A stretch of DNA of 15,996 nt. It comes from a virus. Below are positions 1 to 15,996 of this stretch, in pieces. Each line of letters starts with the position of its first letter. The first letter of the stretch is position 1. Location of the stretch: IMG/VR virus record IMGVR_UViG_3300045988_124588. One strand, given 5' to 3'. Made by a program: the position numbers and the translations under genes. Under the pieces are notes generated by a model that was not told the origin of the DNA, searched no databases, and saw only the letters and a program-made list of their open reading frames with translations.

Positions 1-246
1 ACCTTGTCGTAGTTCGCTCCTAGTTTCGCGCGGCGTTCCGCGCCGACGCCGTACTCGCCGCGAATCACGGCGTCGGCGAGGGCGTTGAGGTCCACGCCGT
101 TGGATGCGGCGGGTTTGGCTCCTAGTCGCTGGTTTACGATCTGCTGCACCTTGTCGTAGTTCGCTCCTAGTTTCGCGCGGCGTTCCGCGCCGACGCCGTA
201 CTCGCCGCGAATCACGGCGTCGGCGAGGGCGTTGAGGTCCACGCCG
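1..246. repeat. Tandem 147-bp-period repeat encoding CW_7 modules (49 aa per unit)
   Basis: The 99-bp cores 1..99 and 148..246 are identical base for base. A third copy at 15898..15996 is identical to 124..222. Confidence 0.95.
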
Positions 247-746
247 GCCGTTGACGGCTGGCTTGGCGTGGGCGTGTTCGACGCCGCGCCATGGCGTGCG
301 ATGCGGTCGAGCCTGTCAAGGTCGTAGGTGCCGGGGCATGACGTTGGCCTTGGGGAGAGGTCGCGGTGGCGTTTCAACGGTAGGTCGCCGTAGGTCTTGC
401 GGATGTTGCGGATGAGTTCGCCGATGGTCTGGTAGTCGCCGTCTGACTGGCGGGGGTTGCATTCGATGCTGATGCCCTTATCGTTGCCCATGCTGTTGCA
501 GCCCACTCCGTCGCCGGTGGCCCAGCTGCGGTTGTCGGGGTCTACGATGCAGGCGACGCGGCCGGCTTCGGCGACATAGTTCGCGGATGCGCCGCGTGAC
601 TTACTGCACAGGGTGGAGATAACACCGTTGAAGGTGGGATGCTTGGCGGGGTCGTCCCACCAGTGGATGACGATGCAAGCGATGCCGTATGGGCGGCCTG
701 GCGTGTAGTTGGGGCTGTTGTATTTGGTGATGTACTCGAAGGACAT
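1..746 (-). CDS. Endolysin: N-acetylmuramoyl-L-alanine amidase (Amidase_2/PGRP-like) with C-terminal CW_7 (Cpl-7-type) cell-wall-binding repeats. The 3' part runs off the window and resumes at 15996..15891.
   Basis: My own translation from ATG 746 gives MSFEYITKYNSPNYTPGRPYGIACIVIHWWDD...NDKGISIECNPRQSDGDYQTIGELIRNIRKTYGDLPLKRHRDLSPRPTSCPG. This is the typical Amidase_2 layout. It is followed by repeats VDLNALADAVIRGEYGVGAERRAKLGANYDKVQQIVNQRLG, which resemble the CW_7 consensus. An AAGGAA SD lies upstream. The ORF is absent from the ORF track because it has no in-window stop. Confidence 0.85.
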   Translation of the reverse strand, partial: MSFEYITKYNSPNYTPGRPYGIACIVIHWWDDPAKHPTFNGVISTLCSKSRGASANYVAEAGRVACIVDPDNRSWATGDGVGCNSMGNDKGISIECNPRQSDGDYQTIGELIRNIRKTYGDLPLKRHRDLSPRPTSCPGTYDLDRLDRIARHGAASNTPTPSQPSTAGVDLNALADAVIRGEYGVGAERRAKLGANYDKVQQIVNQRLGAKPAASNGVDLNALADAVIRGEYGVGAERRAKLGANYDK

Positions 747-757
747 GGTAGGTTCCT

Positions 758-1114
758 TTACTTGTTGGGGTTGGTTTTGTTGGTGTGGAAAAGGTCTAGT
801 ACAGGGCTGTCGGCCAGTTCGGGGTTGATTTCCACGAGGTTTTCGAGGATGCTGGTTATTTCGGTGAGGGATATCCAGATGCACGCGGCGGTGGCGATGG
901 GCACGCTGAAGCCGAGATCGATGTGCTGTTGCGCGAAGTCGATCAGGACGCCGAGGCTTACCGCGAAGATGTAGGTGGCTTTGTGCCATAGGCCGGTTCT
1001 CATTTTCTCGCTGTTGATGTCGTGCGCGGCGATGGCTTTGGCCACGCCTGTGATGTAGTCGCCCACGATGAGTGTGAGGGTGACGATCATTGCGATTGCC
1101 TGTGTTTTGTCCAT
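758..1114 (-). CDS. Holin (phage_holin_4 / LL-H-type family)
   Basis: 118 aa with hydrophobic segments and the motif LTEITSILENL, typical of this holin family. It lies directly upstream of the lysin, and GAAAGGAAA precedes the ATG. Confidence 0.8.
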   Translation of the reverse strand: MDKTQAIAMIVTLTLIVGDYITGVAKAIAAHDINSEKMRTGLWHKATYIFAVSLGVLIDFAQQHIDLGFSVPIATAACIWISLTEITSILENLVEINPELADSPVLDLFHTNKTNPNK

Positions 1115-1127
1115 TTGGTTTTCCTTT

Positions 1128-1979
1128 CTATTGTGCCTGCACTGCCAGCAGGTCGATGAGGGTTATGGCCACGGGTGACAGATAGGTGAGGTCTATCGGT
1201 ATTGAAACTGTCCTGGTGGAGGTCAGCCACAAATAGAGGGTATTGTCGACTGTTTGGGTCGTGAACATGAATTCGTCGGCGCTGTAGGTAAGCCCGTAGT
1301 CGAAACTGATTCGCGCGACGATCTGGCTTGCTTTGATTTCGGCTGAGCCGAGGTAGATGCTTTGCTGGTTGGCGAGGGCTCCGGTTTTGCCGTGCGTGAT
1401 GGTGATTCTGGTCAGGGGGAACGGTGAGAGGGTTAGAGGGTTGTCGGCGGCCCCGGTGCCCTTGATGCCCTGCCCGGTGGCGAACGTGGCGGGCGCGCCG
1501 TCGCGGCCGCGCGGCAGTGTGAGGTCCAGTGTCTGGTCGCCGTGTGCGTCGGTGGTGAGGCTGCCCGTCGCCGGTTGGGTGCTGTCCACGCTGGTGATCT
1601 TGCCGAGAGTGAGGCGGCGTTGACGGGGAAGGCCCAGACGAAGGCTGTAATCGCCGTGTTCGTCGGTGCCGGTTGCGGCGGTAGGGGACTGTGCCGGGTC
1701 GAGCTGTTCGCTGGTGACGCCCTTGATTCGCGGGGCGCGGGGGATTCCGAGATTCAGGGTTCTCGGCCCGTTGAACGTTTCGGAGGCGGTGTAGGCCGCC
1801 GTGGGCTGTTGGTTGGGGTCGAGTTGTTTGGCCACGGCGTAGGTGATCGGCGGCTTGTTGGCGATTTTCCCCACGGCCGTGTCGATGCTTTCGGCCATGG
1901 CCTGCATCTGCGCGGGCGCTTGGTTGATGCTGTCGCCTGAGTCCGGGTAGGTGATGCCCCAGGGTTGCGTCTTTTTCAT
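1128..1979 (-). CDS. Tail fibre / receptor-binding protein candidate (283 aa)
   Basis: ATG 1979 overlaps the upstream stop (ATGA). It is the last structural gene before the lysis cassette. It contains three ~33-aa internal repeats (QLDPxQxPTA...G...L.L.LPR). The track ORF start at 2162 is an Arg/His-rich out-of-context extension. Confidence 0.55.
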   Translation of the reverse strand: MKKTQPWGITYPDSGDSINQAPAQMQAMAESIDTAVGKIANKPPITYAVAKQLDPNQQPTAAYTASETFNGPRTLNLGIPRAPRIKGVTSEQLDPAQSPTAATGTDEHGDYSLRLGLPRQRRLTLGKITSVDSTQPATGSLTTDAHGDQTLDLTLPRGRDGAPATFATGQGIKGTGAADNPLTLSPFPLTRITITHGKTGALANQQSIYLGSAEIKASQIVARISFDYGLTYSADEFMFTTQTVDNTLYLWLTSTRTVSIPIDLTYLSPVAITLIDLLAVQAQ

Positions 1980-3451
1980 TGCTGCTCCTTTGTGGTGATC
2001 GGTATGAGGTTTGGTGTCTGCGTCCAGATTCCGCGGCCGTCGGCGACCTTGTACGCGAGTGTGCCGCCGATCATCCACCAGCACCCCTCGACGGGGTTTA
2101 TGCCGGTGTCGTCGGTCAGGGCGGAGTAAATGGTGTTGTGGATGCGGATGGGTTTGGCCCATGTGTCAAAAAGCTGCGAGTGGCTGGAATGGCTCATGTG
2201 GCGTGTGTCGAAGATGATGCCGTCCGGCATGAGCCTTCGGCATTGTTCGACGGTGCTTTGGTTGAGCTTTCTTCGTGTGGGTTCCGGGTCGAACACTTCC
2301 AGGTATCCGAAGGTTTCGGCGGTTTCCTTGGAGAGTGCGAAGATGAAGTCGGTTTCTATGGTTTCGCTTTTCTCGCCGGCCACGAGGGTGGCTGGCAAGA
2401 GGTCGCCTGCGGTTATAGTGCGTTCCGATTGCACGTATTCCGGTTCATAGATTCCGTCGTCGTTCAATTCGTGCTTGTCGAGGATCGCGCCGGTGATGGT
2501 GTACCGGTCGAATGGTTCCGGGATGTCGGCGGTCTGGTCTGATACGATCTCGCGGCCGGTGACGGTCAACGCCTGGTAGTCTTCGGCGTCGAGCAGCGGG
2601 TAGCCGCAGTAGGGGTCTGCCACGGTGAAGCCCGTGGCGGTCAGGGTCGCGGTGGCGTTCAATCGAACTGGGACAAGCTCATTGCCGTTTGAGTATGAGT
2701 TGCGTATGCGGTTCGTGAATCGGAGCAGCGTCCCGTCCTTCATCAGCGTGTAGCTTTTTGCCAGCAGCGTGGCCATTGATGGGTATGAGCCGAGTTTGAC
2801 GTGCTGGTGGTAGTCCGCGCCGTTGGCGAGCAGGTAGTTTTTCGTGTATGCCTGGAATATGGGCATGGCGGCCGAATTGGCGAGGTAGTCCGTTATGGCG
2901 TTGGTGCGTGAGAGCGAGTTCATGCCCCAGTTGTATCCGTCGCCGGTCGTCCGGTTATTGCCGAGGCGGGCGCGTTTGAGGTTGACCATGTCGCTCGTGA
3001 CGGTCGCGCCGATCACCCAACCGTTTTCGGTGCGCGTGACGGTGCCGCCCGCGTTCATGCGGCCTTTGAACAGCACGGGGCTGCTGTAATCGTAGTCTTT
3101 TTTGCCGTCCAGCACCCATTCGCCGAAATCGCCCCATGTGCCCGGCATGGTGCCCCATGTCTTTCCGACGCGGGAAAGGTCGCCCCATGTCGGCTCGCCG
3201 CCGAGCGTTACGGTCACGATGGTGCCGGCGAGTCTCGTGATGTCCTTCAGATACCAGCCGTGCCGGTCGAGTATTTCGAGTTTCATAACGTCGGGTTCCG
3301 GCGCTTCGAGTGGTTCTGATCCGCCCCATTCGATACGGAAACCGTTGATCGCCATGAGGGCGTCCAGCTGGTTCGCTTGTTGGTTGGTGGTGATTTCCTT
3401 CGGGCCGAATTCGTTGCCGTCCCAGTCGAGGTAGATGTGTGGTTTCCTCAT
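1976..3451 (-). CDS. Minor tail protein (distal tail / tail-tip, 491 aa)
   Basis: ATG 3451 overlaps the TMP stop (ATGA), and the gene lies immediately downstream of the tape measure. I recognise no enzymatic motif. The track ORF start at 3793 lies inside the TMP gene. Confidence 0.6.
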
Positions 3452-5373
3452 CGTCTGCTCTTTTCCCTGCGCTCTATGAGCCTGATGATCTGTTTGGCGG
3501 TCGCGTCCGGGTCGGTGACGATGCCGGAGACGGTTATCTCGTACTTGTTGACGACGGTGGAGCCGGAGACGCCGGCCATGCCGATGGCGAGGCTGGTTGA
3601 CGCCAGACGCCGGTTGACGGTGCCTATCGTGCCGCGCACGGTCGAGTCGAAGCCGGATTGCAGCCCCTGCGCGAAGCCCGTCATGATGGCATTGCCGGCC
3701 GGCACCAGCAGCCGCCGGTCGTAGCTGATCGGGCCCTTGTGGGCCTTGATCCAGTCGCCGATGCCGCCGATCCAGCCGGTCACTTTGTTCCAAGCGCTCT
3801 TAAGTCCTTTAAGGAAACCGTCAATGATGCTTTTCCCCGCGTCGGCCAGCAGATTCCCCACGTTTCCGATGGCGTCTAGGATGCGGCCGGGCAAGCCCTT
3901 GAACCAATCCACGACGCTGTTCCACGTGTTCCTCGCACCGTCAGCCGCGCTCTGGAAGAACGCGCCGATACGGCCCGGCAACGACTGGAAGAACGCGATT
4001 ATATTGTTCACGCAATTGCCCAGGAACGCGGTGAACCGGCTCCATATCTGCCGGCCCGTCTCGGTCTGGGTGAAGAACCACGCCAACGCCGACACAAGAG
4101 CGCCTATCGCGGTGACCACGATCATGATGGGGTTGGCGTTCATTGCGGCGTTCAACGCCCACTGGCCGATTGACGCGGCCTCAGCCGCCAGATTGAAGCC
4201 CTGCAACGCGGATACCACGGCGCTGATGACGCCGGCCACCTTGAACGCGGCGAAACCTCCGCCGATGGCGATAAGCGCGCCGCTGATGGGTTCCGCGTTG
4301 GCGCTTACCCAATCGCCGAACTGTGTGAGCTTGTCCGCTAGCGCTTGGATGATTCCGGCCGCGTCGTTGAACGCCTCGCCCACCGTGGTGCCGATGCCGC
4401 CAGCGTCGGATAAGCCTTGCAAGCCCGGCGCTATCGTCGTGGCGATGCTGGCGAACGCGCCGCCCAACGCGGATAGCGCGTTGCCAATGCTCGATACCAT
4501 GTCGGAAAACGCTTGGAGCGCTCCCGTGTCACTTATTCCCTGGATGAACTGTTGCAAGCCGTTGGTGGCGTTCTGGCTGAACTGGCTGATCTGATTGCCC
4601 GCTTCGGTCAACGCGCCAGTGACGGCCGGCTTTATGAGGTCGAAAGCGTCCGTAAGCCCGCCGGTGATAGCGGCCTCCAAGTTGCCTAGAGCTCCCTCCA
4701 TGGTCTTGGTGCTGCTGGCGGCTTCCTTGGCCACGTCGCTCATACCGAGCTGCATAATCGCTTGGTTGAACTCGGCGGCGCTGATTTCACCCTTTTCCAT
4801 CGCGTCGCGGAAATTGCCGGTGTACGCGCCGTTGGCCTTCATGGCCTTCTGGAGCTTGCCGGACGCGCCTGGGATGGCGTCGGCCATCTGGTTCCAGTTC
4901 TCGGTGGTGAGCTTGCCCGCGCCGGCGGTCTGGGTGAGCACCATGGCCACCGATCTGAACGTGTCGGCGTTGCCGCCGGCCACGGCGTTCAGGTTGCCGG
5001 CCGCTTCGGTCAGGCCGGTGTAATCGCCGATGCCGTTGGCGGCCAGCTGCGCCGTCGTGTTCTGGATGGTGGACAGATCGTATACGGTGCGGTCGGCGTA
5101 ATCGCGCGCCGCCTTGGATGCTTTTTCGACGTTGCTTGTGTCGATGCCGGCGAAGTTCATCGTGGAAACAAATTTGTCGGTGCTGTCGCTCATGTTCATC
5201 ACGGCGCTGCCGAACGAACTCACCTTGTCCCATAGGGCGGTGACTCCCTTGAGTGCCGCGCCGCCCATGAACGAGCCGAACGCCGCCGCCTTGCTGGTGG
5301 CTTTCTGGAACGCCTTCACGGCGTCGTCGCTGTTGCCCGTGATTCTCACGGACATTATCGCGCTATGAGCCAT
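3448..5373 (-). CDS. Tape measure protein (641 aa)
   Basis: Ala/Gly-rich helical protein with a hydrophobic central block. The C-terminal region ([53 protein letters not shown]) is typical of TMPs. The gene follows the G/G-T chaperone pair, and GGAGGAAG precedes the ATG. Confidence 0.9.
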
Positions 5374-5805
5374 TTTCAGCTTCCTCCAGTTCCTCGGCTT
5401 CCTGCATCAGGATTTCCACGCACGTGCCCCAATCAAGCTCGCTGGCCTCCTCTCGCCACTGCCATGGCGTGCCGCCGAAGTTGCGGGCGAGCACGCACGA
5501 GAGGCGGCCGAGCGAGTCGTCAGGCCATGCGGCTAGACGGTAGGGTTTCCGGTTTCCTCCTCTTCGTGCTTGAGAGGGGTCACGTTGTCCACGGTGTCCA
5601 GCCACTCTTCGTACTTCAGTTCGGTGAGCTGCTTCAATCGCACGGCGATGTAGGCCGCGTAGAACGTCATGCGAATCTGGCTCGCCTCGCCCGGCTTCCA
5701 GCCGGCCAGCTGCGCGTGCTCCTCCATTCTCGTCAGCACGGCCGGTGACTGGGTGCGCACCTCGTCCACATGCCCGTCGGTGTAGGTGATTTTCATATCG
5801 TTCAT
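5363..5805 (-). CDS. Tail assembly chaperone G-T fusion made by -1 programmed frameshift
   Basis: The -1 frame ORF (…[61 protein letters not shown]) has no credible own start. It overlaps the 3' end of G and ends 11 nt inside the TMP start. A slippery heptamer lies in the overlap. Confidence 0.65.
5533..5805 (-). CDS. Tail assembly chaperone (gpG-like, 90 aa)
   Basis: ATG 5805 is preceded by AAGGGAG. The small acidic-tailed protein lies directly upstream of the TMP, and an overlapping -1-frame ORF extends it. Confidence 0.7.
   Translation of the reverse strand: MNDMKITYTDGHVDEVRTQSPAVLTRMEEHAQLAGWKPGEASQIRMTFYAAYIAVRLKQLTELKYEEWLDTVDNVTPLKHEEEETGNPTV
5542..5548 (-). promoter_or_regulatory. 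-1 ribosomal frameshift slippery heptamer A_AAC_CCT
   Basis: The minus-strand sequence is GGA AAC CCT ACC GTC TAG in the G frame. A AAC CCT fits X_XXY_YYZ, and slipping gives AAA CCC TAC CGT in the T frame. It lies 3 codons before the G stop. Confidence 0.6.
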
Positions 5806-5807
5806 GG

Positions 5808-6191
5808 TTATGCTCCCTTGATCTGCTTCAATGTTTGTTCGATGAACCGCTTGTAGGGGCGTTGCCACATGCTCTCGCTTGAGGCGACGCCATTGTTGAC
5901 GAACAGGCGTGGTCTGATGCCGCGCGCGGGCCAACCGTAGTTGATGACGCCAGCGTAGGGCACCGTCTTTCGGCCGGCGCGTATCACGCCGGCCTTCATG
6001 GTCGCCCCGACGCGCACGCTCTGCTTGAGGTGTCCGGTATTGCCGACGGGCACGAGCGGCAGCACGCTACGCAAAGCGATGTCGGCGGCCTCACGGTTGA
6101 CGCCCTTCAACGCCTGCATGTCCGCGCCGGCCTTGCGCATGGTCTGCACGAACCGTTTCTGCCCGACCACATAGGCCGCCTTGTCCGTCAC
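5808..6191 (-). CDS. HK97 gp10-family head-tail joining / tail completion protein (127 aa)
   Basis: The motif LPLVPVGNTGHLKQSVRVG...VPYAGVINYGWPARGI matches the gp10-family pattern (P-x-TG-x-L-x-S ... Y-A-x-x-x-x-G). The GTG start overlaps the upstream stop (GTGA). Confidence 0.65.
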   Translation of the reverse strand: MTDKAAYVVGQKRFVQTMRKAGADMQALKGVNREAADIALRSVLPLVPVGNTGHLKQSVRVGATMKAGVIRAGRKTVPYAGVINYGWPARGIRPRLFVNNGVASSESMWQRPYKRFIEQTLKQIKGA

Positions 6192-6610: not shown

Positions 6611-6613
6611 GAT

Positions 6614-7326: not shown

Positions 7327-7327
7327 G

Positions 7328-8914: not shown

Positions 8915-10034
8915 TCTGAGCCTCCTGTGTCTGTGGTTCCGGTTGCGGTGCCGGGATAAGCGGCGGCAGCGCCTCCCTTGCGCGCACCTCGTTGACGTCC
9001 ATCCACCCGGCCTCTATCGCCGTCTTGTAGGCGTTGAACCGATCGGCCATGTCCGCGCGCCGGCTGCTGTCCCAGTCGAACGCGGCCGTGCGGCCCCTCG
9101 GCAACAAACGGTTGAACAACTCCTCGATCTCGCCCGCATAAGCCGCCAACGTGTAATCGGCAAACTCAATCCACGACTGTTCTATGTTGCTGTAGGTGAG
9201 ATTGCTGCCGTCAACGGCCGCAAGCATGATGCTGGCCGGGATGCCGAGCAACCGGGCGATCTGCGTGGTATCGAATTTCTGCGTTTCGAGAAACTGCAAG
9301 TCGGCCGGTTTCATGTCCAGCGGCACGTATTTGAGTTTCGAGCCGAGCACCTTCACGTCGCCGGCCTCACCGGTGGCCTTCCACGCCTCCTTGGCGTCCT
9401 TGGCAATCTGGGGGGTCACCTTGTCCTCGGTCTGCAAATAGCCCTTGAGGTTGCTGCCGTCGCTGTAGAACTTGGCCTTGTAGGTTCGGGCCATCTGCGC
9501 GGCCTCCACCTCCTCACGCGCCGCCGAGATTGGGCCAAGCCCACGCAACCGGCCAGGCACGTTCAAAAACTTGCAATGCACGATCTGGTCAGACGTGTAA
9601 TCATGCCCAAGATAGGAATAGCGGAGTTTCGGAGAGGCGGGGTCGGTTCCATCGTCGCTCACGGTCACAAGCGACGGTGGCAGCACCTCGCACGACACCA
9701 CCTCGCCGCCGAACCACACAAGACGCACGAAAGCGTTGCCGTCCAGCACCATGCTTGCCACCATGTCCGCGAGGAAGTCACGGCGGCTACGGTTCACGTC
9801 CGGCTGAAGCACGATGGACGAAACCGTATCGAGCTTCACGCCACCCCTGATTTCATGGATAGGCAAACCCGTGATAGCGGTTTGCAGCACCTGCACGCCA
9901 CGGAACACGGTTGAGAGGCTCAACGGGTCGCAGTCAGCCAAGCGTGCCGGTGGTTTGATGCCGTCCGGCACGCCAGCGTCAGCGCCGCGCGTCAGCACGC
10001 GGCCCGCCATTCTCACACGCTCCCAAATGCTCAT
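8904..10034 (-). CDS. Portal protein (HK97-family-like, 376 aa)
   Basis: Its position between TerL and the protease-capsid gene, its length and its acidic C-terminus support the call. The start MSIWERVRMAG at ATG 10034 is the preferred one. In-frame upstream ATGs at 10094 and 10124 lie in a tandem repeat, so the start is uncertain. Confidence 0.8.
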   Translation of the reverse strand: MSIWERVRMAGRVLTRGADAGVPDGIKPPARLADCDPLSLSTVFRGVQVLQTAITGLPIHEIRGGVKLDTVSSIVLQPDVNRSRRDFLADMVASMVLDGNAFVRLVWFGGEVVSCEVLPPSLVTVSDDGTDPASPKLRYSYLGHDYTSDQIVHCKFLNVPGRLRGLGPISAAREEVEAAQMARTYKAKFYSDGSNLKGYLQTEDKVTPQIAKDAKEAWKATGEAGDVKVLGSKLKYVPLDMKPADLQFLETQKFDTTQIARLLGIPASIMLAAVDGSNLTYSNIEQSWIEFADYTLAAYAGEIEELFNRLLPRGRTAAFDWDSSRRADMADRFNAYKTAIEAGWMDVNEVRAREALPPLIPAPQPEPQTQEAQNEA

Positions 10035-10080
10035 GCGGCCAAGTATCACCGCCAAGCGCCAAACCCGCCACAAGCCCGCC

Positions 10081-10150
10081 GCCCAACGCCGCATAGTGGC
10101 GCCATGCAACGCCGAACGCCGCATAGTGCCGCCATGCAACGCCGAACGCC
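10081..10150. repeat. 30-bp tandem repeat, ~2.3 copies, between the TerL stop and the portal start
   Basis: 10087..10116 (cgccgcatagtggcgccatgcaacgccgaa) and 10117..10146 (cgccgcatagtgccgccatgcaacgccgaa) differ at one base. Partial copies flank them. Confidence 0.9.
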
Positions 10151-10155
10151 ACCGG

Positions 10156-11601
10156 CTAGTAGATTTGCAGCGGCCCCGTTTCCTCCGGCCTGTGGGCTGC
10201 TCCCCAGGCGGCCAACATGCAGCTTTCCAACGGTGATGTAAGGCCGGTGCTGCCACGGCGGCTCACCCGCCATGCGTCGCCGGCCCATTTGCGCGCCGAG
10301 TTCGCGGCGCTGGCGTCCAACTCAGCGTCGGCGGCGTGAGTAACCGCCTTATTCGCCAGACCGGCGACGAAACTCTGGCCGATGGTCAGGTAGTCGGCGG
10401 CGTCCATGTCCACGAACCGCAACAACGGGTCGCCAGCGTCGTCTGCCATATGGTGCAACCTGTCGGACAAATCGGCGGCGGTGCCGCGCGCGTCGATCAC
10501 CACCGGCGCGTCATATTTCTCACACAACCGGTTGAGTTCGGTGGGCGCGTACCCGGTGCCGTCCAAGATTCTCAACAGTTGCACCGTAATTGTGCCGTCA
10601 TTGTTGGCGATGCCAGCCGAAACGCTGGTATGGGTGCCGTCCACGTCCACCGCGACGCCGAACACCACCGGCCGGCCGTCCAAGTCGCCGGGCGTCACCG
10701 GTGCCGTTACCGTAGCCGCCCACAACGCCTCGTCTATCGCCCGGTCCGTTATGCCCTCGTCCCTGCGGTTGCCGAACGCGCGCGCCCAACCTGCCGGGTT
10801 GCCCTGGAACTGTTCTCGGAAGTCGGCCAGCTGCGCCTTGTCCCACAAGAGTCCGGCAGCTGGGTGATAGCGCATGATGCTGTCCAGATTCTCTGGATCT
10901 TCGTCGGCCGGCAAACCGAAGTCGAACCAACACGTTCGGCGCGATTGTTCGCCAGCCCTGCAAGCGTCAAGGCGGCGGTTGAAAAACGTCGATTCCGCCG
11001 TGCCTTCTGTACTGGTAATCCATAGTTGCGGTTGCACGCCGGTGGCCTTGAACCTTGTCGCCATGGTCGGCATGAAGCCGTCCAAAATGGTGTTGCCGGT
11101 TTCCTCGGACAACGAAAACGCCTCGTCCAACGTGATTTTGTCGCCTTGGACGCCGTGCCCCGCAACCTTGGTCACGCTCTTCGGCATTATCACGCTGCCA
11201 TTGGCGAACGGCTGGCGCAAGTCGCCCGCGCCGAGATACGGCCGTGTGGTTATTGCGGCAAGCGGCGAGCTGCCGAGCGTTTTCAGGTATTTCTTGAAGT
11301 GGTCGCCCGCGTCCTTGCCCGTCTGCGCCAGATAATAGATGAAACGATCTGGTCCCCACTGCGAGTTGCGCGTGTCCACCGCGTCCACAAGCGTACTTTT
11401 TCCACACTGTCGCGGTGTGCTCAATATGACCGTGTCATAGTAGTAAGTGCCTGTGTCCGGGTCTATTTCCCCCGCCACGTCGGCTACCAACCGTTGCCAT
11501 GGCAGAAGAGGCGTGCCAAGCAACCGGGCGAACTTGGCGACTATAGGCCCGTCGGTGCGGCGGTCCGGGTTTCGCTGGGTGCCGCCGCGCAATGGCGTCA
11601 T
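10156..11601 (-). CDS. terL: Terminase large subunit (481 aa)
   Basis: Walker A is STPRQCGKST and Walker B-like is KITLDEAF. A C-terminal nuclease-sized domain is present. ATG 11601 overlaps the upstream stop (ATGA). The track start at 11775 lies inside the upstream gene. Confidence 0.9.
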   Translation of the reverse strand: MTPLRGGTQRNPDRRTDGPIVAKFARLLGTPLLPWQRLVADVAGEIDPDTGTYYYDTVILSTPRQCGKSTLVDAVDTRNSQWGPDRFIYYLAQTGKDAGDHFKKYLKTLGSSPLAAITTRPYLGAGDLRQPFANGSVIMPKSVTKVAGHGVQGDKITLDEAFSLSEETGNTILDGFMPTMATRFKATGVQPQLWITSTEGTAESTFFNRRLDACRAGEQSRRTCWFDFGLPADEDPENLDSIMRYHPAAGLLWDKAQLADFREQFQGNPAGWARAFGNRRDEGITDRAIDEALWAATVTAPVTPGDLDGRPVVFGVAVDVDGTHTSVSAGIANNDGTITVQLLRILDGTGYAPTELNRLCEKYDAPVVIDARGTAADLSDRLHHMADDAGDPLLRFVDMDAADYLTIGQSFVAGLANKAVTHAADAELDASAANSARKWAGDAWRVSRRGSTGLTSPLESCMLAAWGAAHRPEETGPLQIY

Positions 11602-11903
11602 GCCCGTGCCTCTTCCAGCAGACCGGCAAGAGCGGGGTCGATTTCCTGCGTTGCCTGGAACTCGGTTTTCAATTCCTGGTACCACGCCAAGAGCTGGGCC
11701 ATGACACGGCTCGTGTCGCGTCCTTTGACGTTCAGCGCGTCGAAATTGCGGGCAATGTTGATCATGGTCTTGCACACGTACTTGGCGTTAGGGTCAAGCT
11801 GCCTATCGCCCACGAAACTCTCGATAAGCTCCTTGGTGGCGCGTTCCTGCAAGCCCTCGTTGGGGCCGTAATAATCATTGAAACCGTCCAAGGTCATTTG
11901 CAT
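11598..11903 (-). CDS. Terminase small subunit candidate (101 aa)
   Basis: It is translationally coupled to TerL, follows AAGGAGG, and is the first gene after the AT-rich gap. The call rests on position only. Confidence 0.45.
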   Translation of the reverse strand: MQMTLDGFNDYYGPNEGLQERATKELIESFVGDRQLDPNAKYVCKTMINIARNFDALNVKGRDTSRVMAQLLAWYQELKTEFQATQEIDPALAGLLEEARA

Positions 11904-12031
11904 TTTCCAACCTCCTTAATAGCTGGTTTTCATTGGTATTCCGCCGTTTTCCGATTTTTTTTTATCCGGTTCGAGAGAGTGAAAAAGTGGGCGCGGGGTC
12001 TTGGTCAAGGCCGATGGCTTAAAAAACAGGC
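11904..12031. other. AT-richer intergenic gap between HNH and TerS; candidate cos/packaging site and late promoter region
   Basis: This 128-bp gap lies at the start of the packaging-to-lysis gene run (11903 down to 746). It contains an A9/T9 run (gattttttttta) and an A6 run. HNH-TerS adjacency is typical of cos phages that need HNH for cos cleavage. Confidence 0.3.
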
Positions 12032-12754
12032 TCACCACTCCGGCCTTGACACGACTGTGACGCGATCACTGCGAAGCCCCAAGCGTACGAGCATGGCGCG
12101 GCGTTCCCGCTGTCGTGCGTCCACCAACGCCTGTGAGATGTGCAAGCCGTACCATTGACGCACCAACCGCTTGGCCTGCTCCGTCCCGGCCCGCTCCCAC
12201 TCCACGCTGAAGCCGGGGTCTATCACCCGCACGTCATAATCCAGGGCTATCCACTCGTCCAACATGCGCGGATGCCTCTTGCTGCTTGGCGTGGTTCGTG
12301 CAAGCCACACGTCGATAGGCTCCTGAGTTATGGCGAACTGGCGATAGGCAGCAGACCACGCCATAGCCACCGCCCGCCGCTGCGCCATGCTGGGCGACGC
12401 CGGTAGGCGCATGGCCTGAGCCAACGCCGACCACGACACAACAGGGTCGCCGTGCTGCCTGTGTGAGTCAATCCACTCCACTGCCTCACGGTCGCATGCA
12501 CCGGGTGGCGTGATGATGATATGCAAGCGCGCGCCATAGCCATACAGCACGCGGTCTTGGCGACTGGCGTTGCAATGCTTGCACGCACGCCTGATGTTCG
12601 CCACGGTATCCATGCCGCCATGCGAGTAAGGCACTATATGGTCGTCTTCCTCACCCACGCCGGTGCAACCGGGCAACCTGAGCCAACAAGCATTGCCCCA
12701 CGTCTCGATCACCTTTGCCCTCACAAGAGGGTCGATGGTCTGCCTACGCGCCAT
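12032..12754 (-). CDS. HNH endonuclease with a ~170-aa C-terminal extension (240 aa)
   Basis: The N-terminal sequence CWLRLPGCTGVGEEDDHIVPYSHGGMDTVANIRRACKHCNASR is an HNH motif. ATG 12754 is preceded by GGAGG. The C-terminal part has no motif I recognise with certainty. Confidence 0.8.
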   Translation of the reverse strand: MARRQTIDPLVRAKVIETWGNACWLRLPGCTGVGEEDDHIVPYSHGGMDTVANIRRACKHCNASRQDRVLYGYGARLHIIITPPGACDREAVEWIDSHRQHGDPVVSWSALAQAMRLPASPSMAQRRAVAMAWSAAYRQFAITQEPIDVWLARTTPSSKRHPRMLDEWIALDYDVRVIDPGFSVEWERAGTEQAKRLVRQWYGLHISQALVDARQRERRAMLVRLGLRSDRVTVVSRPEW

Positions 12755-12950
12755 GGCCCTGCCTCCGCTTCCTCGCGCGCACCCACATATCAAGATCAGC
12801 CAGCTCGTACAAGCAAGGCGAGTTGAAAGCGTCGCCGGCCTTGAACCATGACGGCCCACGGTTCTCCTCCCTCATGCGCTCCATCGTGCGCGCCGAGACG
12901 CCCAAGTAGATGGCCGCTTGCCTGGTGGTCAGTTTCGCGCGCGGGTTCAC
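12744..12950 (-). CDS. Excisionase-like / MerR-type HTH_17 DNA-binding protein (68 aa from GTG 12950)
   Basis: LTTRQAAIYLGVSARTMERMREENRGPSWFKAGDAFNSPCLYELADLDMWV fits the excisionase-family HTH pattern. GTG 12950 overlaps the upstream stop (GTGA). The alternative GTG at 12968 is possible. Confidence 0.6.
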   Translation of the reverse strand: MNPRAKLTTRQAAIYLGVSARTMERMREENRGPSWFKAGDAFNSPCLYELADLDMWVRARKRRQGHGA

Positions 12951-13288
12951 AGCACGCCCACCCAACACTTGAGCGATGTCAACAGATCGGCGCGGTCGAA
13001 CACCTGCACTCCAGATCGGGATACGGGCTTTCGCAAGACGCCCCTGCTGATAAGCTCCTGCAACACATGGTCGCCGGTCGGGTCGGCTTCCGGCGCGATC
13101 TTGTTCAGGCGAAGCAAGTTGATAACAAAGTAACGCCTAACCATATCGGTTCCGACGGTGTCATGCTCCAACCGTTCGATGTTCCACCTGATAACGTTCT
13201 TGATGTCCTTAGTACGCTGCGCTTTGTTCTTCGGCACCGCACGCTTGGCACGCTTCCTAGTCGGCCTGTAATCCACCGAATATCCCAT
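12947..13288 (-). CDS. Hypothetical protein, basic N-terminus, possible DNA-binding function (113 aa)
   Basis: ATG 13288 is preceded by GAGG with 6-nt spacing. The sequence MGYSVDYRPTRKRAKRAVPKNKAQRTK... is the first gene after the non-coding island. I recognise no family. Confidence 0.5.
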   Translation of the reverse strand: MGYSVDYRPTRKRAKRAVPKNKAQRTKDIKNVIRWNIERLEHDTVGTDMVRRYFVINLLRLNKIAPEADPTGDHVLQELISRGVLRKPVSRSGVQVFDRADLLTSLKCWVGVL

Positions 13289-13791
13289 AATTTGCCTCAC
13301 TTCCTAAAGCTTGAGTCGGTCTGTCGAGTTGGTCTGTAGAAGATTGATTCCGAAGCCGCAAGGCTCCGTTTCCATGTCTCTCAAATTGGTGAACAGTTAG
13401 AGCGAGGAACCTCAAAGCGAAACAATGGAAACCGGCGAAGCCGCAAGGCTCCGCCGTCCAAAGTTCCGTAAGGTTCGCACTGCAAAGCAAGCTCTCAAAT
13501 CGGAGCCACAGCCGTCGCAATGGTCAGCGGCACAATGGCCGCGCGCAAGGTCACGGCCTGAGACCCGCCACGCATGGCGGCAAAGCACCCTGTTGCGCCC
13601 TCCCAATGCGCCCCAAGCCGTTCAGTGAACCCGCATGGCAGACCCCGCCGCCGTCGTAACCACCGGCCCACAGCCGGTGTGTTTGTAACGCGCTGGGCAA
13701 GGCGCGGTAGGGTACTTTCAAAACACGCTGGGACTCACCTACGGTCGCAATCCGTCAAAGCGCATGAAATTATCGGAAAGAACGAGAACGA
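13289..13791. other. ~500-bp non-coding island (candidate origin, regulatory region or structured RNA)
   Basis: It contains no ORF with an SD or plausible composition. An 18-bp perfect direct repeat cgaagccgcaaggctccg lies at 13351..13368 and 13436..13453. Each copy folds as a hairpin with a GCAA loop on the plus strand. The repeat ggtctgt occurs at 13317 and 13331. GCAA-loop and short GC hairpins are frequent, for example ccgccaCGCAtggcgg at 13565..13580. Confidence 0.4.
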
Positions 13792-13983
13792 TCACGCCTG
13801 CCTGTATCTTCGCCTCACCGCATCGTCACGAGCCAACGAATCAGTCACGCACGAGCGCAACTGTTCCAACTGCGGGCGCGTCAACATCACCGCCGCGCGA
13901 ACATCACCGGAATCGAACGACACACGGAAGATACCCGGATATGCCTCGTAATTATCCACGCAGACCCTAGTAGCCGTACCCAT
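13792..13983 (-). CDS. Hypothetical protein (63 aa)
   Basis: ATG 13983 shares a base with the upstream TGA (TGATG coupling). The sequence is MGTATRVCVDNYEAYPGIFRVSFDSGDVRAAVMLTRPQLEQL... No family is recognised. Confidence 0.45.
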   Translation of the reverse strand: MGTATRVCVDNYEAYPGIFRVSFDSGDVRAAVMLTRPQLEQLRSCVTDSLARDDAVRRRYRQA

Positions 13984-14246
13984 CACACCACCTCGCCTTC
14001 GTCGGTTATCGTCATTTGCACTTCGTCGGGTATGGACTTGATGCAGCACACCAGCACGTAGCCGTCGTACTCCGGTATCTTGCCGGTGCGCAGCACGATG
14101 GCCGATTGGTCGTCGTCGTCGGTGAAGCAACGCACGATGCCGCACGTCCACTTGACGCCACCCTTCTGCGTCACCAGACGCAACACCACCAGATCACCCG
14201 GCGCAACTGTGCCGGGTTCCGTGGTGATCTCGAAACGAACGCTCAT
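13983..14246 (-). CDS. Hypothetical protein (87 aa)
   Basis: ATG 14246 is preceded by AAGGAGCAG. The sequence is MSVRFEITTEPGTVAPGDLVVLRLVTQKGG... No family is recognised. Confidence 0.5.
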   Translation of the reverse strand: MSVRFEITTEPGTVAPGDLVVLRLVTQKGGVKWTCGIVRCFTDDDDQSAIVLRTGKIPEYDGYVLVCCIKSIPDEVQMTITDEGEVV

Positions 14247-14247
14247 T

Positions 14248-14358
14248 TCACTGCTCCTTGGCCTTCCACTTGGCGTCGCCGGCGAGAGATTCAGCGTGCA
14301 AAGCGACGCCCAGCGCCACAATTGAAACAATCAAAGAAACAAGCCCAAGCACCGTCAC
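14248..14358 (-). CDS. Possible 36-aa single-pass membrane peptide
   Basis: My own translation gives VTVLGLVSLIVSIVALGVALHAESLAGDAKWKAKEQ. The GTG start overlaps the Cro-like stop (GTGA), and the stop lies 1 nt before the next ATG. It fills an otherwise unexplained 108-nt gap and is below the ORF-track size cutoff. Confidence 0.3.
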   Translation of the reverse strand: MTVLGLVSLIVSIVALGVALHAESLAGDAKWKAKEQ

Positions 14359-14591
14359 TTCACCTCCAATGGCTCACGGCCAAGAAGCACGTCTGAGGGA
14401 ATGCCGAAGTGTTCTGCAAGATTGGCGATTTCTTCAGATTTGAAGCTGATTCGTCCGGCGCATTTCTGAGATAAAGCAGACGGAGATATGCCGATGATGG
14501 CGGCAACTTGCTTCAAGGACTCACCTTTGAAGCCCGTTAAACGTTTTATCACCTGACCTGAATTTAGGCCATCTAATCTCAAAGTAGACAT
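14355..14591 (-). CDS. Cro-like XRE-family HTH regulator, first gene of the long minus-strand operon (78 aa)
   Basis: The HTH is SLKQVAAIIGISPSALSQKCAGR. It is divergent from the repressor-like gene across a 90-bp AT-richer switch region. Confidence 0.7.
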   Translation of the reverse strand: MSTLRLDGLNSGQVIKRLTGFKGESLKQVAAIIGISPSALSQKCAGRISFKSEEIANLAEHFGIPSDVLLGREPLEVK

Positions 14592-14599
14592 AGCCCATA

Positions 14600-14628
14600 T
14601 AGATACACCCAGCTAATTTAGATGTCAA
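14600..14628 (-). promoter_or_regulatory. Candidate leftward (lytic-operon) promoter
   Basis: The minus strand reads TTGACA (14628..14623), a 17-nt spacer, TATCTA (14605..14600), then 8 nt to ATG 14591. This implies a leaderless or near-leaderless transcript. The -10 element is weak. Confidence 0.35.
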
Positions 14629-14645
14629 ATCAAGGATGGCGATAG

Positions 14646-14674
14646 TTGCAATATGCGTTAGCTAGGCTTAATAT
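14646..14674 (+). promoter_or_regulatory. Candidate rightward promoter for the repressor-integrase operon
   Basis: TTGCAA (14646..14651), a 17-nt spacer, TAATAT (14669..14674), then 7 nt to ATG 14682. This predicts a leaderless mRNA, which is common in Actinomycetota. Confidence 0.45.
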
Positions 14675-14681
14675 TATGTGC

Positions 14682-15047
14682 ATGACAACAGCAACATTAA
14701 GCCCGCAAGCACAGGTAAAGTCCAATGAGGGCAAGGGCAATGGCCTTCAGTCGATTGTGACGCAAAATATGCGTATTGCCATGGCGATGCGCGGCGTATC
14801 GCAAAAGGACTTGGCGGCGGCGATGGGATTTAATCCATCTGCGATTTCGCAGAAGATGACTGGCCGCGTTTTGTGGAACCTTGAGGATATAGAAAAAGCC
14901 TCCGGTTTCTTCAATGTGAAACCGGAGGCATTGGTAGCGGGGCATGGATTTGAACCATGGACCTCTGGGTATCCCAGAGGTCCCAAGGTTCAAATCCATG
15001 CCCCGGAGCGCCTTCCGGCTGATTTTGGCTTCACTTTAGCCGCGTAG
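14682..15047 (+). CDS. Immunity repressor candidate, XRE-family HTH, circular (viral) form of 121 aa ending in ...TLAA; attP core embedded in its 3' end
   Basis: The HTH is SQKDLAAAMGFNPSAISQKMTGR, paralogous to the divergent 78-aa protein. It lies upstream of and co-oriented with int. The last ~27 codons read through the tRNA-like palindrome. The track start at 14646 is TTG, but ATG 14682 fits the promoter. Confidence 0.7.
   Translation: MTTATLSPQAQVKSNEGKGNGLQSIVTQNMRIAMAMRGVSQKDLAAAMGFNPSAISQKMTGRVLWNLEDIEKASGFFNVKPEALVAGHGFEPWTSGYPRGPKVQIHAPERLPADFGFTLAA
14893..14929 (-). terminator. Intrinsic terminator on the minus strand, immediately 3' of the tRNA-like fragment
   Basis: A perfect 12-bp stem (gcctccggtttc / gaaaccggaggc) with an 8-nt loop at 14898..14929 is followed on the minus strand by TTTTT (14897..14893). 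It begins 3 nt after the CCA of the tRNA mimic. Confidence 0.6.
14932..14970 (-). other. attP core candidate: mimic of a tRNA 3' portion (anticodon-stem 3' strand, variable loop, T-arm, acceptor 3' strand, discriminator A, CCA)
   Basis: The minus strand reads a-cccag-aggtc-catgg-ttcaaat-ccatg-ccccgct-a-cca. It has a perfect 5-bp T-stem and a TTCAAAT T-loop. No matching 5' acceptor strand or D-arm is present, so it is a fragment and not a gene. Confidence 0.7.
14939..15004. repeat. Near-perfect 66-bp palindrome made of the tRNA-like fragment and an inverted degenerate copy
   Basis: The left arm 14939..14969 and right arm 14973..15004 are complementary except ccat versus cccaa in the T-stem position. 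The centre is t-a-t at 14970..14972. Confidence 0.9.
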
Positions 15048-15066
15048 GTGGTCAAGATGGTGTGCC

Positions 15067-15894
15067 ATGACGAAAAACAGGGTAGCGCCCCCGTTATGGC
15101 GTGAGGATATTGATGGTTGGCTGGTTGCGCTGAAGGCGGGCGGTCGAAGCGAGCAGACGCTTTTGACCCGACGACGAAAGATGGCATATGCGGCCTGTTG
15201 CCTAGATGCCGGCCCCTATGACGTGACCTGCGAACGAATCACCGCTTGGTTCGCCGCACAGGAATGGAAACCGGAGACGCGCAAGGCTTACCGCAACACT
15301 TTGTCCAGCTTTTTCGGCTGGTTGCAACAGATGGGACGGCGCGCGGATAATCCCAGCGACGGTTTGCCGAAGGTCAAGCGTCCGCGCCCCCACCCGCGTC
15401 CTTGCCCGGACAAAGTGATTCTGGCCGCGTTGGCGCATGCCACACCCGAGGAGCGGCTTATGTTGCGGCTCGGTGCCGAGTGCGGCTTACGCCGTGGTGA
15501 GATAGGGCGCGTGTCCAGCGACGACGTGATGGACGATCTGGTTGGCCACAGCTTGGTGGTCAACGGCAAGGGTGACAAACAGCGCATAGTGCCCTTGCCC
15601 GATGATCTGGCCGATGAGATTGCCACACATGACGGCTACACGTTTCCCGGACGTTTCGGGGGCCACGTCGAGGAAAGCTATGTAGGTGACCGCCTATCGC
15701 GTTTGCTGGGCGATGGGTGGACGGCCCATAGTTTGCGGCACCGTTATGCGACGGTGACGTGGCAGGCCACGCACGATCTGCTATTGGTCTCCAAGCTGCT
15801 CGGCCATGCGAGCGTGGAGACCACGCAGGTGTACGTGGCGATGCCCGACGCGCGGTTGCGCGCCGGGCTTGACGCGGTGGTGTTGGCCGGTTAG
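15067..15894 (+). CDS. int: Tyrosine recombinase / integrase (275 aa, XerC/D-sized, SAM-like N-domain)
   Basis: Catalytic signature: LRLGAECGLRRGE (Arg), GKGDKQRIVPL (Lys), AHSLRHRYAT (His-x-x-Arg), LGHASVETTQVYV (His and Tyr). Its stop TAG at 15892..15894 overlaps the convergent lysin stop. Confidence 0.9.
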   Translation: MTKNRVAPPLWREDIDGWLVALKAGGRSEQTLLTRRRKMAYAACCLDAGPYDVTCERITAWFAAQEWKPETRKAYRNTLSSFFGWLQQMGRRADNPSDGLPKVKRPRPHPRPCPDKVILAALAHATPEERLMLRLGAECGLRRGEIGRVSSDDVMDDLVGHSLVVNGKGDKQRIVPLPDDLADEIATHDGYTFPGRFGGHVEESYVGDRLSRLLGDGWTAHSLRHRYATVTWQATHDLLLVSKLLGHASVETTQVYVAMPDARLRAGLDAVVLAG

Positions 15895-15996
15895 CCGAGT
15901 CGCTGGTTTACGATCTGCTGCACCTTGTCGTAGTTCGCTCCTAGTTTCGCGCGGCGTTCCGCGCCGACGCCGTACTCGCCGCGAATCACGGCGTCG
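15891..15996 (-). CDS. C-terminal end of the endolysin (last CW_7 repeat and stop), continuation of feature 1..746 across the circular junction
   Basis: The minus-strand translation is ...DAVIRGEYGVGAERRAKLGANYDKVQQIVNQRLG followed by TAA (15893..15891). It is in frame with 1..746 when 15921 is joined to 1 (777 nt, 258 aa). Confidence 0.8.
   Translation of the reverse strand, partial: DAVIRGEYGVGAERRAKLGANYDKVQQIVNQRLG
15898..15996. repeat. Third copy of the CW_7-encoding repeat
   Basis: 15898..15996 is identical to 124..222, and 15922..15996 is identical to 1..75. Confidence 0.95.

Follow-up and report, generated by a model that had tools for sequence, protein, structure and literature searches.

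How can a temperate phage be copied when none of its genes resembles a replication gene? The question is raised by the virus record IMGVR_UViG_3300045988_124588, a stretch of 15,996 nucleotides (nt; 61% G+C) that was analysed over its whole length and is called the window here. With good confidence, and as one joint claim, we interpret the window as a small temperate siphovirus of Bifidobacterium bifidum, present as its complete circular genome in the excised state, and we take this phage to be copied by the host replisome. The phage belongs to a group of bifidobacterial prophages that integrate at a tRNA-Met gene, and it is built like the small-genome actinobacteriophages. Its kind is already known: the group was published in 2018 (Mavrich et al.; PMC6109161), and near-identical prophages occur in many B. 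bifidum genomes. Between its early and late genes lies a structured non-coding element of about 370 nt (13385..13779), which appears undescribed so far and is, whichever role it plays, a new structured RNA candidate. This element is the feature that we tentatively put forward as the origin of replication.

A conserved structured element between the early and late genes

The element reads on the minus strand, from about 13779 to 13385. It opens with the motif CCGATAAYT, continues through at least eight helices, among them a long 3′ hairpin (13475..13409), and runs up to the block GGTTCCYCGCTCTAAC..CACCA. The original prediction had recorded a non-coding island here; taken as a plain non-coding spacer this was not borne out, the stretch being a conserved, structured and covarying element present family-wide. 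The region from about 13370 to 13720 matches more than 35 relatives at 72–98% nucleotide identity; the match breaks off sharply at 13718, and the relatives have no open reading frame (ORF) in common there. Alignments reveal hairpins with compensatory changes, and some blocks, GCGCGCCTTGCCCAGCGCGTTACAAACAC among them, do not vary; of the 52 pairs predicted by RNAalifold, 21 show double changes. The 3′ hairpin is closed by AACCU/AGGUU and is retained between subgroups in which its interior is wholly different. The CCGATAAYT motif, which resembles a –10 box, stands at a fixed distance upstream, though the preceding ORFs are unrelated.

A covariance model of the central 193 positions scores 145–226 bits in close relatives and 26–48 bits (E values of 1e-4 to 1e-10) in the most distant subfamilies. 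It recovers the element in every family member searched, each match lying between the early ORFs and the genes for the 113-residue, Xis-like and HNH proteins; outside the phage family the model has no matches, and none in the small phage Jeanie. Pairing was counted on 33 distinct sequences in an alignment fitted to the model, which somewhat favours structure: standard pairs occupy 94.9% of the pair cells, compared with 72.1% in shuffles and 36–43% when the partners are slid. Both sides have changed in 36 of the 42 pairs, and the covariation score is 0.539 (shuffles, 0.159; partners slid, about 0.055). G-U cells outnumber A-C cells by 138 to 8, from which it follows that only the gene-sense strand folds; the minimum free energy is likewise 28 kcal/mol better in the sense direction (–171 versus –143 kcal/mol). 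Rfam 15, which includes HEARO (the IscB omega RNA), ROOL, GOLLD and raiA, gave no match to the element at E≤1 over the whole window or at E≤10 on 13280-13800.

No recognisable replication gene

ORFs were searched against the Pfam, PHROGs and NCBIfam families. Neither the ORFs of the window, those between cro and the HNH gene among them, nor the ten longest antisense ORFs matched any polymerase, primase, helicase or initiator, any partition protein or any second recombinase, and no replication gene was found by a profile search of 1.84 billion proteins or by structure prediction. Nor do the early regions of four complete relatives (loci L001, L004, L006 and L040) hold an ORF that could accommodate a replication enzyme. 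Hidden plus-strand genes are not apparent among the ten longest antisense ORFs either: they have no credible family match and the wrong phase of third-position G+C, their sole result being TAF1C_HB at E=0.0037, below the curated cut-off. The original prediction had listed, between cro and HNH, ORFs of 36, 87, 63 and 113 residues, an Xis-like gene and a stretch without ORFs (about 13300-13790), and had seen no replication gene among them. Both statements hold, and neither the family searches of the small ORFs nor the structure prediction for the 113-residue protein gave a replication initiator, primase or helicase fold.

The 113-residue protein has 127 homologues, all unnamed and all from Bifidobacterium genomes or metagenomes, and its 30 representative clusters in the search of 1.84 billion representative proteins are all small proteins. 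The AlphaFold model (mean predicted local distance difference test (pLDDT) score of 82) shows a basic tail and a winged-helix-like domain. Compared with structures in the PDB, nothing is significant (best E=0.24), the winged helices of ribosomal S25, ROQ, ORC2, MarR and Cdt1 scoring alike, and its sequence profile finds no solved relative. Judged from the model, the protein probably binds nucleic acid, and nothing more specific can be assigned. For the 87-residue protein the model is unusable (pLDDT 46.6). The 63-, 87- and 36-residue ORFs match no family in the three collections and, being patchily conserved over the phage family, are unlikely to be essential.

The element as a candidate origin of replication

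As there is no recognisable replication enzyme, we infer that the host replisome must copy the phage from a cis-acting site, and the structured element is proposed as that site. Transcribed in its sense direction, it would initiate replication by way of transcription or of an RNA primer, on the pattern of lactococcal phage c2 or ColE1; in some relatives, assistance would come from host DnaA bound to tandem DnaA boxes beside it. The element is preferred because, apart from the cos-like region, no other large non-coding feature is conserved, because it is strand-specific, because DnaA-box-like sequences directly follow it in nine relatives and because the non-coding c2-type origin gives a precedent. 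In those relatives, which form one subgroup (L015, L017 at 1669-1711, L018, L020, L027, L030, L040 at 3902-3944, L046 and L054), two to four tandem TTATCCACA boxes (at most one mismatch, one to three perfect) stand directly after the element and before the 113-residue gene. ColE1-type plasmids, too, have a DnaA box downstream. The c2 origin and ColE1 RNA II resemble the element in being non-coding, structured and read from the sense strand in a replicon without its own initiator; the comparison would be one of mechanism only, there being no sequence or Rfam similarity and no DnaA-box cluster in the window. In the lactococcal Ceduovirus origin (phage c2 type), which is non-coding, the structured transcript PE1-T drives initiation, and the origin replicates plasmids without phage proteins (PMC7150918).

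Several observations weigh against an origin at this site. The DnaA-box cluster is absent from the window and its closest relatives; the window has three one-mismatch matches to the box, none clustered, with 1.5 expected by chance. Scanning 11800-15100 for the sigma-70 promoter consensus returned no site, only the –10-like CCGATAAYT being seen at the element, and the scan is uninformative for this host since the repressor and cro promoters were missed too. A regulatory leader would be equally well placed here, just upstream of the late/packaging operon. Small proteins without assigned function could hide a new type of initiator, and the B. breve prophage Bb423phi2 showed neither excision nor a rise in copy number after mitomycin C (PMC6109161). 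The element is thus put forward, tentatively, as the leading single candidate for a host-dependent origin. The fuller claim that it represents a new class of large phage RNA, a protein-independent origin that is RNA-primed or transcription-activated and aided by DnaA in some lineages, is more tentative still. The replication of 14-18-kb siphoviruses without replication genes is not discussed in PMC6109161, PMC5559632, PMC7302621 or bioRxiv 10.1101/2022.02.05.479200, as judged by term searches of these texts. The origin proposal and the two readings that follow are not mutually exclusive.

A regulatory role is about as likely as that of an origin, if short of an even chance. Whether as a cis-acting leader, as an antitermination RNA or as a separate non-coding RNA, the element would then control read-through from early to late genes (113-residue, Xis-like, HNH, terminase) in place of a protein activator, the origin lying elsewhere, for example in the AT-rich repressor/cro region. 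Its placement between early and late genes, at the very boundary and immediately upstream of the late operon, and its sense-only folding agree with such a switch, as does the long terminal hairpin, the tip of which scores terminator-like. Family searches found no late activator, sigma factor or antiterminator protein, and the lowest G+C of the genome (47%) is at 14501-15000. However, the 'terminator' belongs to the long conserved AACCU/AGGUU hairpin and has no free stem with a U-tract, and the DnaA boxes adjoining the element in relatives are more usual at origins. Known antitermination RNAs such as HK022 put are also far smaller than an element of about 370 nt and at least eight helices.

It is rather unlikely that a conserved small DNA-binding protein, be it the 113-residue, the Xis-like helix-turn-helix (HTH) or the HNH/P-loop protein, acts as a new initiator and brings the host helicase to the non-coding region nearby. 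The 113-residue gene always follows the structured element, and its product combines a basic tail with a winged-helix-like fold whose weak matches include the ORC2 and Cdt1 winged helices; yet none of the structural matches reaches significance, MarR, ribosomal S25 and ROQ scoring equally. Just upstream of this gene lie two adjacent direct repeats of 12–13 nt, ACAGACCAACTCG and ACAGACCGACTCA (ACAGACC(A/G)ACTC; 13336..13311, minus strand), and a second copy of the hairpin GGAGCCTTGCGGCTTC is found at about 13366-13351. Repeats and hairpin could be protein-binding sites, and the two-copy repeat may be chance. Some homologues of the HNH fusion have an intact Walker A motif, but an HNH gene beside terminase is a known cos-cutting arrangement, the Gordonia homologue being the last gene before the cohesive end. 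Sequence searches, moreover, link none of the three proteins to Rep, DnaA or O-like families.

Integrated copies and completeness

In an index of public assemblies, 691 blocks contain the capsid protein in exactly the form of the window. A capsid search of species-representative genomes gave eight loci (six labelled Bifidobacterium, one Actinomyces and one Leucobacter), and 195 viral contigs were also returned. A further capsid locus (L005; CAVAQZ010000025.1) is in a bin labelled Dysosmobacter segnis, has a Bifidobacterium-type tRNA-Met and was probably binned in error. A tRNA-Met gene on one side and, on the other, a direct repeat of its 3′ end bound the prophage in six loci, at spacings of 16,428-17,323 bp; relatives in five other Bifidobacterium genomes are 16.4–17.3 kb long. 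Proteins identical to the capsid, integrase and terminase of the window are annotated in B. bifidum genomes, and the 90% capsid cluster contains one B. breve member; the family as a whole spans several Bifidobacterium species, with capsid identity down to 40%. Deposited phage genomes contain no close relative at the DNA level, only pieces of the tape measure gene being matched.

A matching prophage is present in eight chromosomal contigs (L091-L098; up to 2.2 Mb), where it is flanked by metA (the HTS gene) with tRNA-Met and by a host gene. Identity to the window is 99.7–99.9% over 1..14260 (121..14260 in L091 and 43..14260 in L098) and 99.7–100% over 14260..14970. In L095 the two 39-nt att cores are 16,525 bp apart and enclose the gene list of the window plus a segment of about 605 bp at 14260, with no extra replication genes. 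Since near-identical integrated copies hold the same genes and are bounded by att repeats, the window is not a fragment of a larger prophage. The prediction of a complete genome therefore stands: a collapsed or misassembled fragment was looked for and is at odds with the same gene content in the 16,525-bp integrated copies of B. bifidum.

The segment of about 605 bp that is missing from the window at 14260 is present in the integrated copies (4051-4656 in L093) and in the viral contig L223. It holds an 80-residue reverse-strand gene and the remainder of a 61-residue ORF, of which the 36-residue ORF of the window is a truncated remnant.

Attachment site, immunity switch and excised form

The attP core (14970..14932 on the minus strand) corresponds to the final 39 nt of an initiator-type tRNA-Met through the CCA end and matches exactly the tRNA-Met of L004, L005, L040 and L091-L098. 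It falls within the 3′ end of the repressor ORF, with consequences for the repressor: the viral form has 123 residues and ends in ...EPWTSGYPRGPKVQIHAPERLPADFGFTLAA, whereas the form in the lysogen L095 has 99 residues and ends in ...EPWTSGL. Integration thus strips 24 C-terminal residues including an ssrA-like LAA tail. Read from the sequence, the arrangement is one of integration-dependent immunity, in which truncation on integration into tRNA-Met is expected to stabilise the repressor. The integrase C terminus (...DAVVLAG) is not clearly a degradation tag.

The excised arrangement (cro and early genes, repressor and int, lysin) recurs, at 99.9% identity to the window, in three contigs from other samples, namely L221 (Human Microbiome Project), L222 (17,125 bp) and L223 (a Logan assembly), each of which encodes the tagged repressor in full length. 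Several samples therefore contain phage DNA in excised or concatemeric form. The prediction of a temperate lifestyle is supported.

That the phage is a defective or helper-dependent prophage, which excises, is perhaps packaged and is copied through a co-resident phage or passive chromosomal replication, is improbable. The behaviour of Bb423phi2 after mitomycin C, mentioned above, would agree with it, as would the unrelated prophages in tandem at the same tRNA in L010 and L220; but phages with integration-dependent immunity are usually not mitomycin-inducible, according to Mavrich et al. (PMC6109161). Every gene is intact, and hundreds of assemblies carry the set in nearly identical form, as the 691 capsid blocks illustrate, and the family is conserved over several Bifidobacterium species despite capsid identities as low as 40%. 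Excised-form contigs come from four samples, and phages of Gordonia Cluster CW, which share the design, form plaques unaided.

Other features of the attachment region deserve description. A 68-nt near-perfect palindrome at 14938-15005 (23-nt arms, 96% complementary) is made up of the attP core together with an inverted sequence that nearly copies the T-arm and acceptor of the tRNA, perhaps for symmetric integrase binding. Because of this palindrome, the Rfam matches to 'mir-607' and 'mir-934' at 14938..15005 on both strands are spurious. A 12-bp hairpin followed by TTTTT (14898-14929, minus strand) lies directly past the copy of the tRNA 3′ end, opposite the repressor coding sequence, and could serve as terminator of the rebuilt tRNA-Met gene in the lysogen.

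In L011 and L091-L097 int and a repressor gene are contiguous at the right end. A reading of this as tandem copies of the phage was rejected, the repressor gene being that of a decayed older element and abutting attR. This decayed element lies beyond attR in B. bifidum lysogens (about 19650-20800 in L091, L095 and L097; about 1990-2980 in L214-L219) and has another repressor allele of 136–144 residues, small ORFs and sometimes a BrnT-toxin gene. Joined to the int-side arm of the new phage, the old repressor regains the tagged C terminus ...FTLAA. The second, unrelated prophages in tandem at the same tRNA-Met (L010 13999-14614; L220 1-2739) have their own integrase (about 66% DNA identity in L010), and the one in L220 has a CHAP lysin and an SPP1-type holin.

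Closure of the circle and the lysin repeats

The window was predicted to close on itself, and it does: the 75-nt overlap (1..75 and 15922..15996) is exact, and the minus-strand lysin ORF stays open and in frame across the joined ends to give a 258-residue product. An internal copy of the same 75-mer at 148..222, its third occurrence in the window, had been missed. The repeat matches extend further, 1-99 being identical to 148-246 (100%) and 121-222 matching 15895-15996 (99%). They arise from the tandem duplication of a 147-nt unit; its product has, behind an Amidase_2 domain, two CW_7 cell-wall-binding repeats (Pfam) that are identical to each other. With this tandem repeat at the ends, the circle measures 15,921 bp (two repeats) or 15,774 bp (one), so that its length is uncertain by one repeat unit only; the lysin is intact under either. 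Lysins of 209, 258 and 307 residues, with one, two and three CW_7 repeats, are found in independent assemblies, the 258-residue form being identical in L093-L097. The copy number of the 147-nt unit, whose copies are identical, varies between otherwise near-identical prophages (L091-L098, L214-L219).

The remaining idea, that the identical CW_7 repeats produced an apparent circle in assembly and the true element is larger, draws on the internal recurrence of the terminal 75-mer at 148..222, but it is extremely improbable and, as far as sequence can tell, already effectively refuted by the integrated copies: chromosomal contigs of up to 2.2 Mb reproduce the lysin/int junction (also present in L010, L011 and L091-L098) and the whole gene order, and the prophage boundaries enclose 16.5 kb.

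Gene content and packaging region

Nearly all genes are on the minus strand (Table 1). The late genes form a single long leftward operon, which makes up about 80% of the DNA and runs from the small-terminase candidate through large terminase, portal, protease-capsid and tail genes to holin and lysin. Virion and assembly genes take up 75% of the genome (1..11903 and 15891..15921), or 80% with the HNH packaging gene. The phage is assigned to the siphoviruses from its genes, which include a major tail protein and a tape measure protein and no sheath. Genome size and the 641-residue tape measure would predict a T=4-sized head and a tail of roughly 95 nm. Family searches confirmed all the modules that had been predicted, namely packaging, head, tail, lysis and lysogeny.

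Table 1. Features of the window in order of position.
Feature	Position (nt)	Strand	Basis or remark
Endolysin, N-terminal 248 codons, Amidase_2 and two CW_7	1..746	–	Continues over the circle junction into 15891..15921; 258 residues in full
Holin, 118 residues	758..1114	–	Pfam Phage_holin_4_1, E 7e-21
Minor tail protein or receptor-binding candidate, 283 residues	1128..1979	–	Position; no family match
Minor tail protein, 491 residues	1976..3451	–	Position after tape measure gene; no Pfam match
Tape measure protein, 641 residues	3448..5373	–	PHROG 58, E 3.9e-61; TMP_3 annotation in related loci
Tail assembly chaperone pair: 90-residue ORF (5533..5805) and overlapping downstream ORF (5363..5605)	5363..5805	–	Position and overlap; no family match
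Tail completion/Neck1-type protein, 127 residues	5808..6191	–	PHROG 5, E 1.2e-8
Major tail protein, 140 residues	6188..6610	–	PHROG 4574, E 5.3e-32
Two head-tail joining proteins: 127 residues (6614..6997) and 110-residue connector (6994..7326)	6614..7326	–	110-residue protein: PHROG 5938, E 1.4e-6
Prohead protease-major capsid fusion, 528 residues	7328..8914	–	Pfam Peptidase_S78 and Phage_capsid_4 in a single ORF; PHROG 2263, E 2.4e-74
Portal protein, 368 residues by gene calls	8904..10010	–	Pfam Phage_portal, E 2.4e-69
Large terminase subunit, 481 residues	10156..11601	–	PHROG 9, E 5.9e-30
101-residue protein overlapping terminase start, small-terminase candidate	11598..11903	–	Position only; same place as Jeanie gp1
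A/T-tract-rich intergenic region, candidate cos site	11904..12031	–	Conserved between HNH and terminase genes
HNH endonuclease fused to P-loop-kinase-like domain, 240 residues	12032..12754	–	Pfam HNH, E 1e-7
Xis-like HTH protein	12744..12968	–	Pfam HTH_17, E 3.7e-6; PHROG 66 excisionase; TIGR01764, E 7e-5
113-residue family-specific protein	12947..13288	–	Basic N-terminal tail and winged-helix-like fold
Conserved structured non-coding element	13385..13779	–	Alignments, covariance model, pair counts
Three small variable early ORFs (63, 87 and 36 residues)	13792..14358	–	No family matches
Cro-like HTH protein, 78 residues	14355..14591	–	Pfam HTH_3 and BetR
Immunity repressor (cI), viral form of 123 residues ending ...FTLAA	14676..15047	+	HTH_3, repressor PHROGs
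attP common core, 3′ 39 nt of initiator-type tRNA-Met, inside repressor gene	14932..14970	–	Exact tRNA-Met match
Tyrosine integrase, 275 residues	15067..15894	+	Pfam Phage_integrase, E 9.6e-17; PHROG 1, E 1.4e-37
Lysin, last 9 codons and stop	15891..15921	–	3′ end overlaps int 3′ end by 4 nt

Conservation differs along the operon. The head-tail joining region is conserved in more than 80 loci, and the small-terminase candidate, which has no match in the three family collections, in 45; the 283-residue tail or receptor-binding candidate is the least conserved structural gene and is matched in only three related loci. The two tail assembly chaperone ORFs, which overlap, are probably arranged for frameshifting. 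The window contains no tRNA genes, the attP core being a mere tRNA 3′ fragment. A phage satellite of the P4 or phage-inducible chromosomal island type is ruled out by the full set of structural and lysis genes, and a gene transfer agent by int, repressor, cro and attP together with the excised-form contigs.

The gene order of HNH (12032..12754), conserved intergenic region, 101-residue gene and large terminase is that of an HK97-type HNH-assisted cos layout. The intergenic region 11904..12031 is conserved family-wide, even in the most distant relatives, with blocks AAGACCCCGCGCCCAnTTTTT, an A-run and GAAAACGGCGGAATACCAA. This region is a likely cohesive-end (cos) site, and an HNH protein encoded beside such an A/T-tract-rich region fits HNH-assisted cos cleavage. 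The C-terminal domain of the HNH protein is P-loop-kinase-like, with a Walker A motif that is degenerate in the window (ITPPGACD). Distant homologues (P0207, P0186 and L006 at 6157-6894) keep an intact GPPEAGKT and match AAA_33 above threshold, which suggests that nucleotide binding was lost in the lineage of the window and the domain kept. An RNA-guided, IscB-like nuclease that uses the structured RNA was considered and rejected: the NCBIfam match covers only the HNH core of about 60 residues (26 bits, where the cut-off is 175), both a RuvC domain and a HEARO match are lacking, and two genes separate the RNA from the HNH gene.

Relation to known small phages

The closest group is that of Mavrich et al. 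(PMC6109161), which includes the B. breve prophages Bb423phi2 (18,221 bp) and 689b-1 (18,260 bp), both at tRNA-Met beside metA, as well as Bl-1 of B. longum. These authors remarked that the prophages are small and consist predominantly of structural genes, that their immunity is integration-dependent and involves an ssrA-like tag, and that they resemble RRH1, Arthrobacter Cluster AN and the temperate phages of Gordonia Cluster CW (PMC6109161). The tie to the window is by att site and description: the printed attR is identical to 14932..14970, with the 39-nt core TGGTAGCGGGGCATGGATTTGAACCATGGACCTCTGGGT, and Bb423phi2 and 689b-1 share with the window the tRNA-Met next to metA, the small and mostly structural gene set, int and repressor at opposite ends of the prophage and the ssrA-like tail of the viral repressor. 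The window differs in its host (B. bifidum), its size (15.9–16.5 kb as against 18.2 kb) and in being an excised copy. The structured element is not mentioned in PMC6109161.

Phages of Gordonia Cluster CW are temperate, plaque-forming and 17.1–17.7 kb long, with more than 80% of the coding capacity in virion genes (PMC5559632). Jeanie and McGonagall (17.1 kb; Pope et al. 2017, PMC5559632) have the same order of small-terminase candidate, large terminase, portal, protease-capsid fusion and tail genes, followed by leftward int and repressor and then by small rightward ORFs that end in an HNH/polynucleotide kinase-like gene before the cohesive end; they too are temperate, with integration-dependent immunity at a tRNA. 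The window protein is only 31% identical to this gp27, which is annotated 'polynucleotide kinase' or 'terminase small subunit', and the attachment site of the two phages is tRNA-Lys. Jeanie further differs in having lysin A among the head genes and in gp26, annotated 'DNA polymerase III subunit', which is absent from the window.

Small actinobacteriophages all share the protease-capsid fusion and are without most non-structural genes (PMC7302621; bioRxiv 10.1101/2022.02.05.479200). RRH1, Arthrobacter AN, AX and FE and Microbacterium EE phages resemble the window in size (below 20 kb), siphoviral tails, protease-capsid fusion and scarcity of non-structural genes, but are lytic, lack integrase and repressor, and have DNA similarity to the window confined to tape measure pieces. 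With a circle of 15,921 bp and a prophage of 16,525 bp, the window does rank, as predicted, among the smallest siphovirus genomes (below 20 kb). The lysogeny system, in contrast, which had been taken as the novelty in so small a siphovirus, is preceded by those of Bb423phi2 and 689b-1 (PMC6109161) and of Gordonia clusters CW and DM (PMC5559632; bioRxiv 10.1101/2022.02.05.479200). As far as they are described in PMC6109161, which cites Broussard et al. 2013, the mycobacteriophages BPs and Brujita likewise have attP in the 3′ end of the repressor gene, a tagged viral and a truncated prophage form, a divergent Cro and an adjacent int; the difference would lie in the integrase, that of the window ending in ...VVLAG with no clear degradation tag.

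Implications

The window offers a clean, excised, minimal genome from a common infant-gut bacterium. To the published group it adds an independent check of completeness and of the excised form, together with a family-wide structured element that has no Rfam match. If the element is a late-gene switch, it would be an unusually large regulatory RNA. If it is the origin, it would provide a minimal replicon for Bifidobacterium genetics and would explain how the smallest temperate siphoviruses exist without replication genes. In either case this phage family offers a concrete, testable candidate for replication without replication genes.

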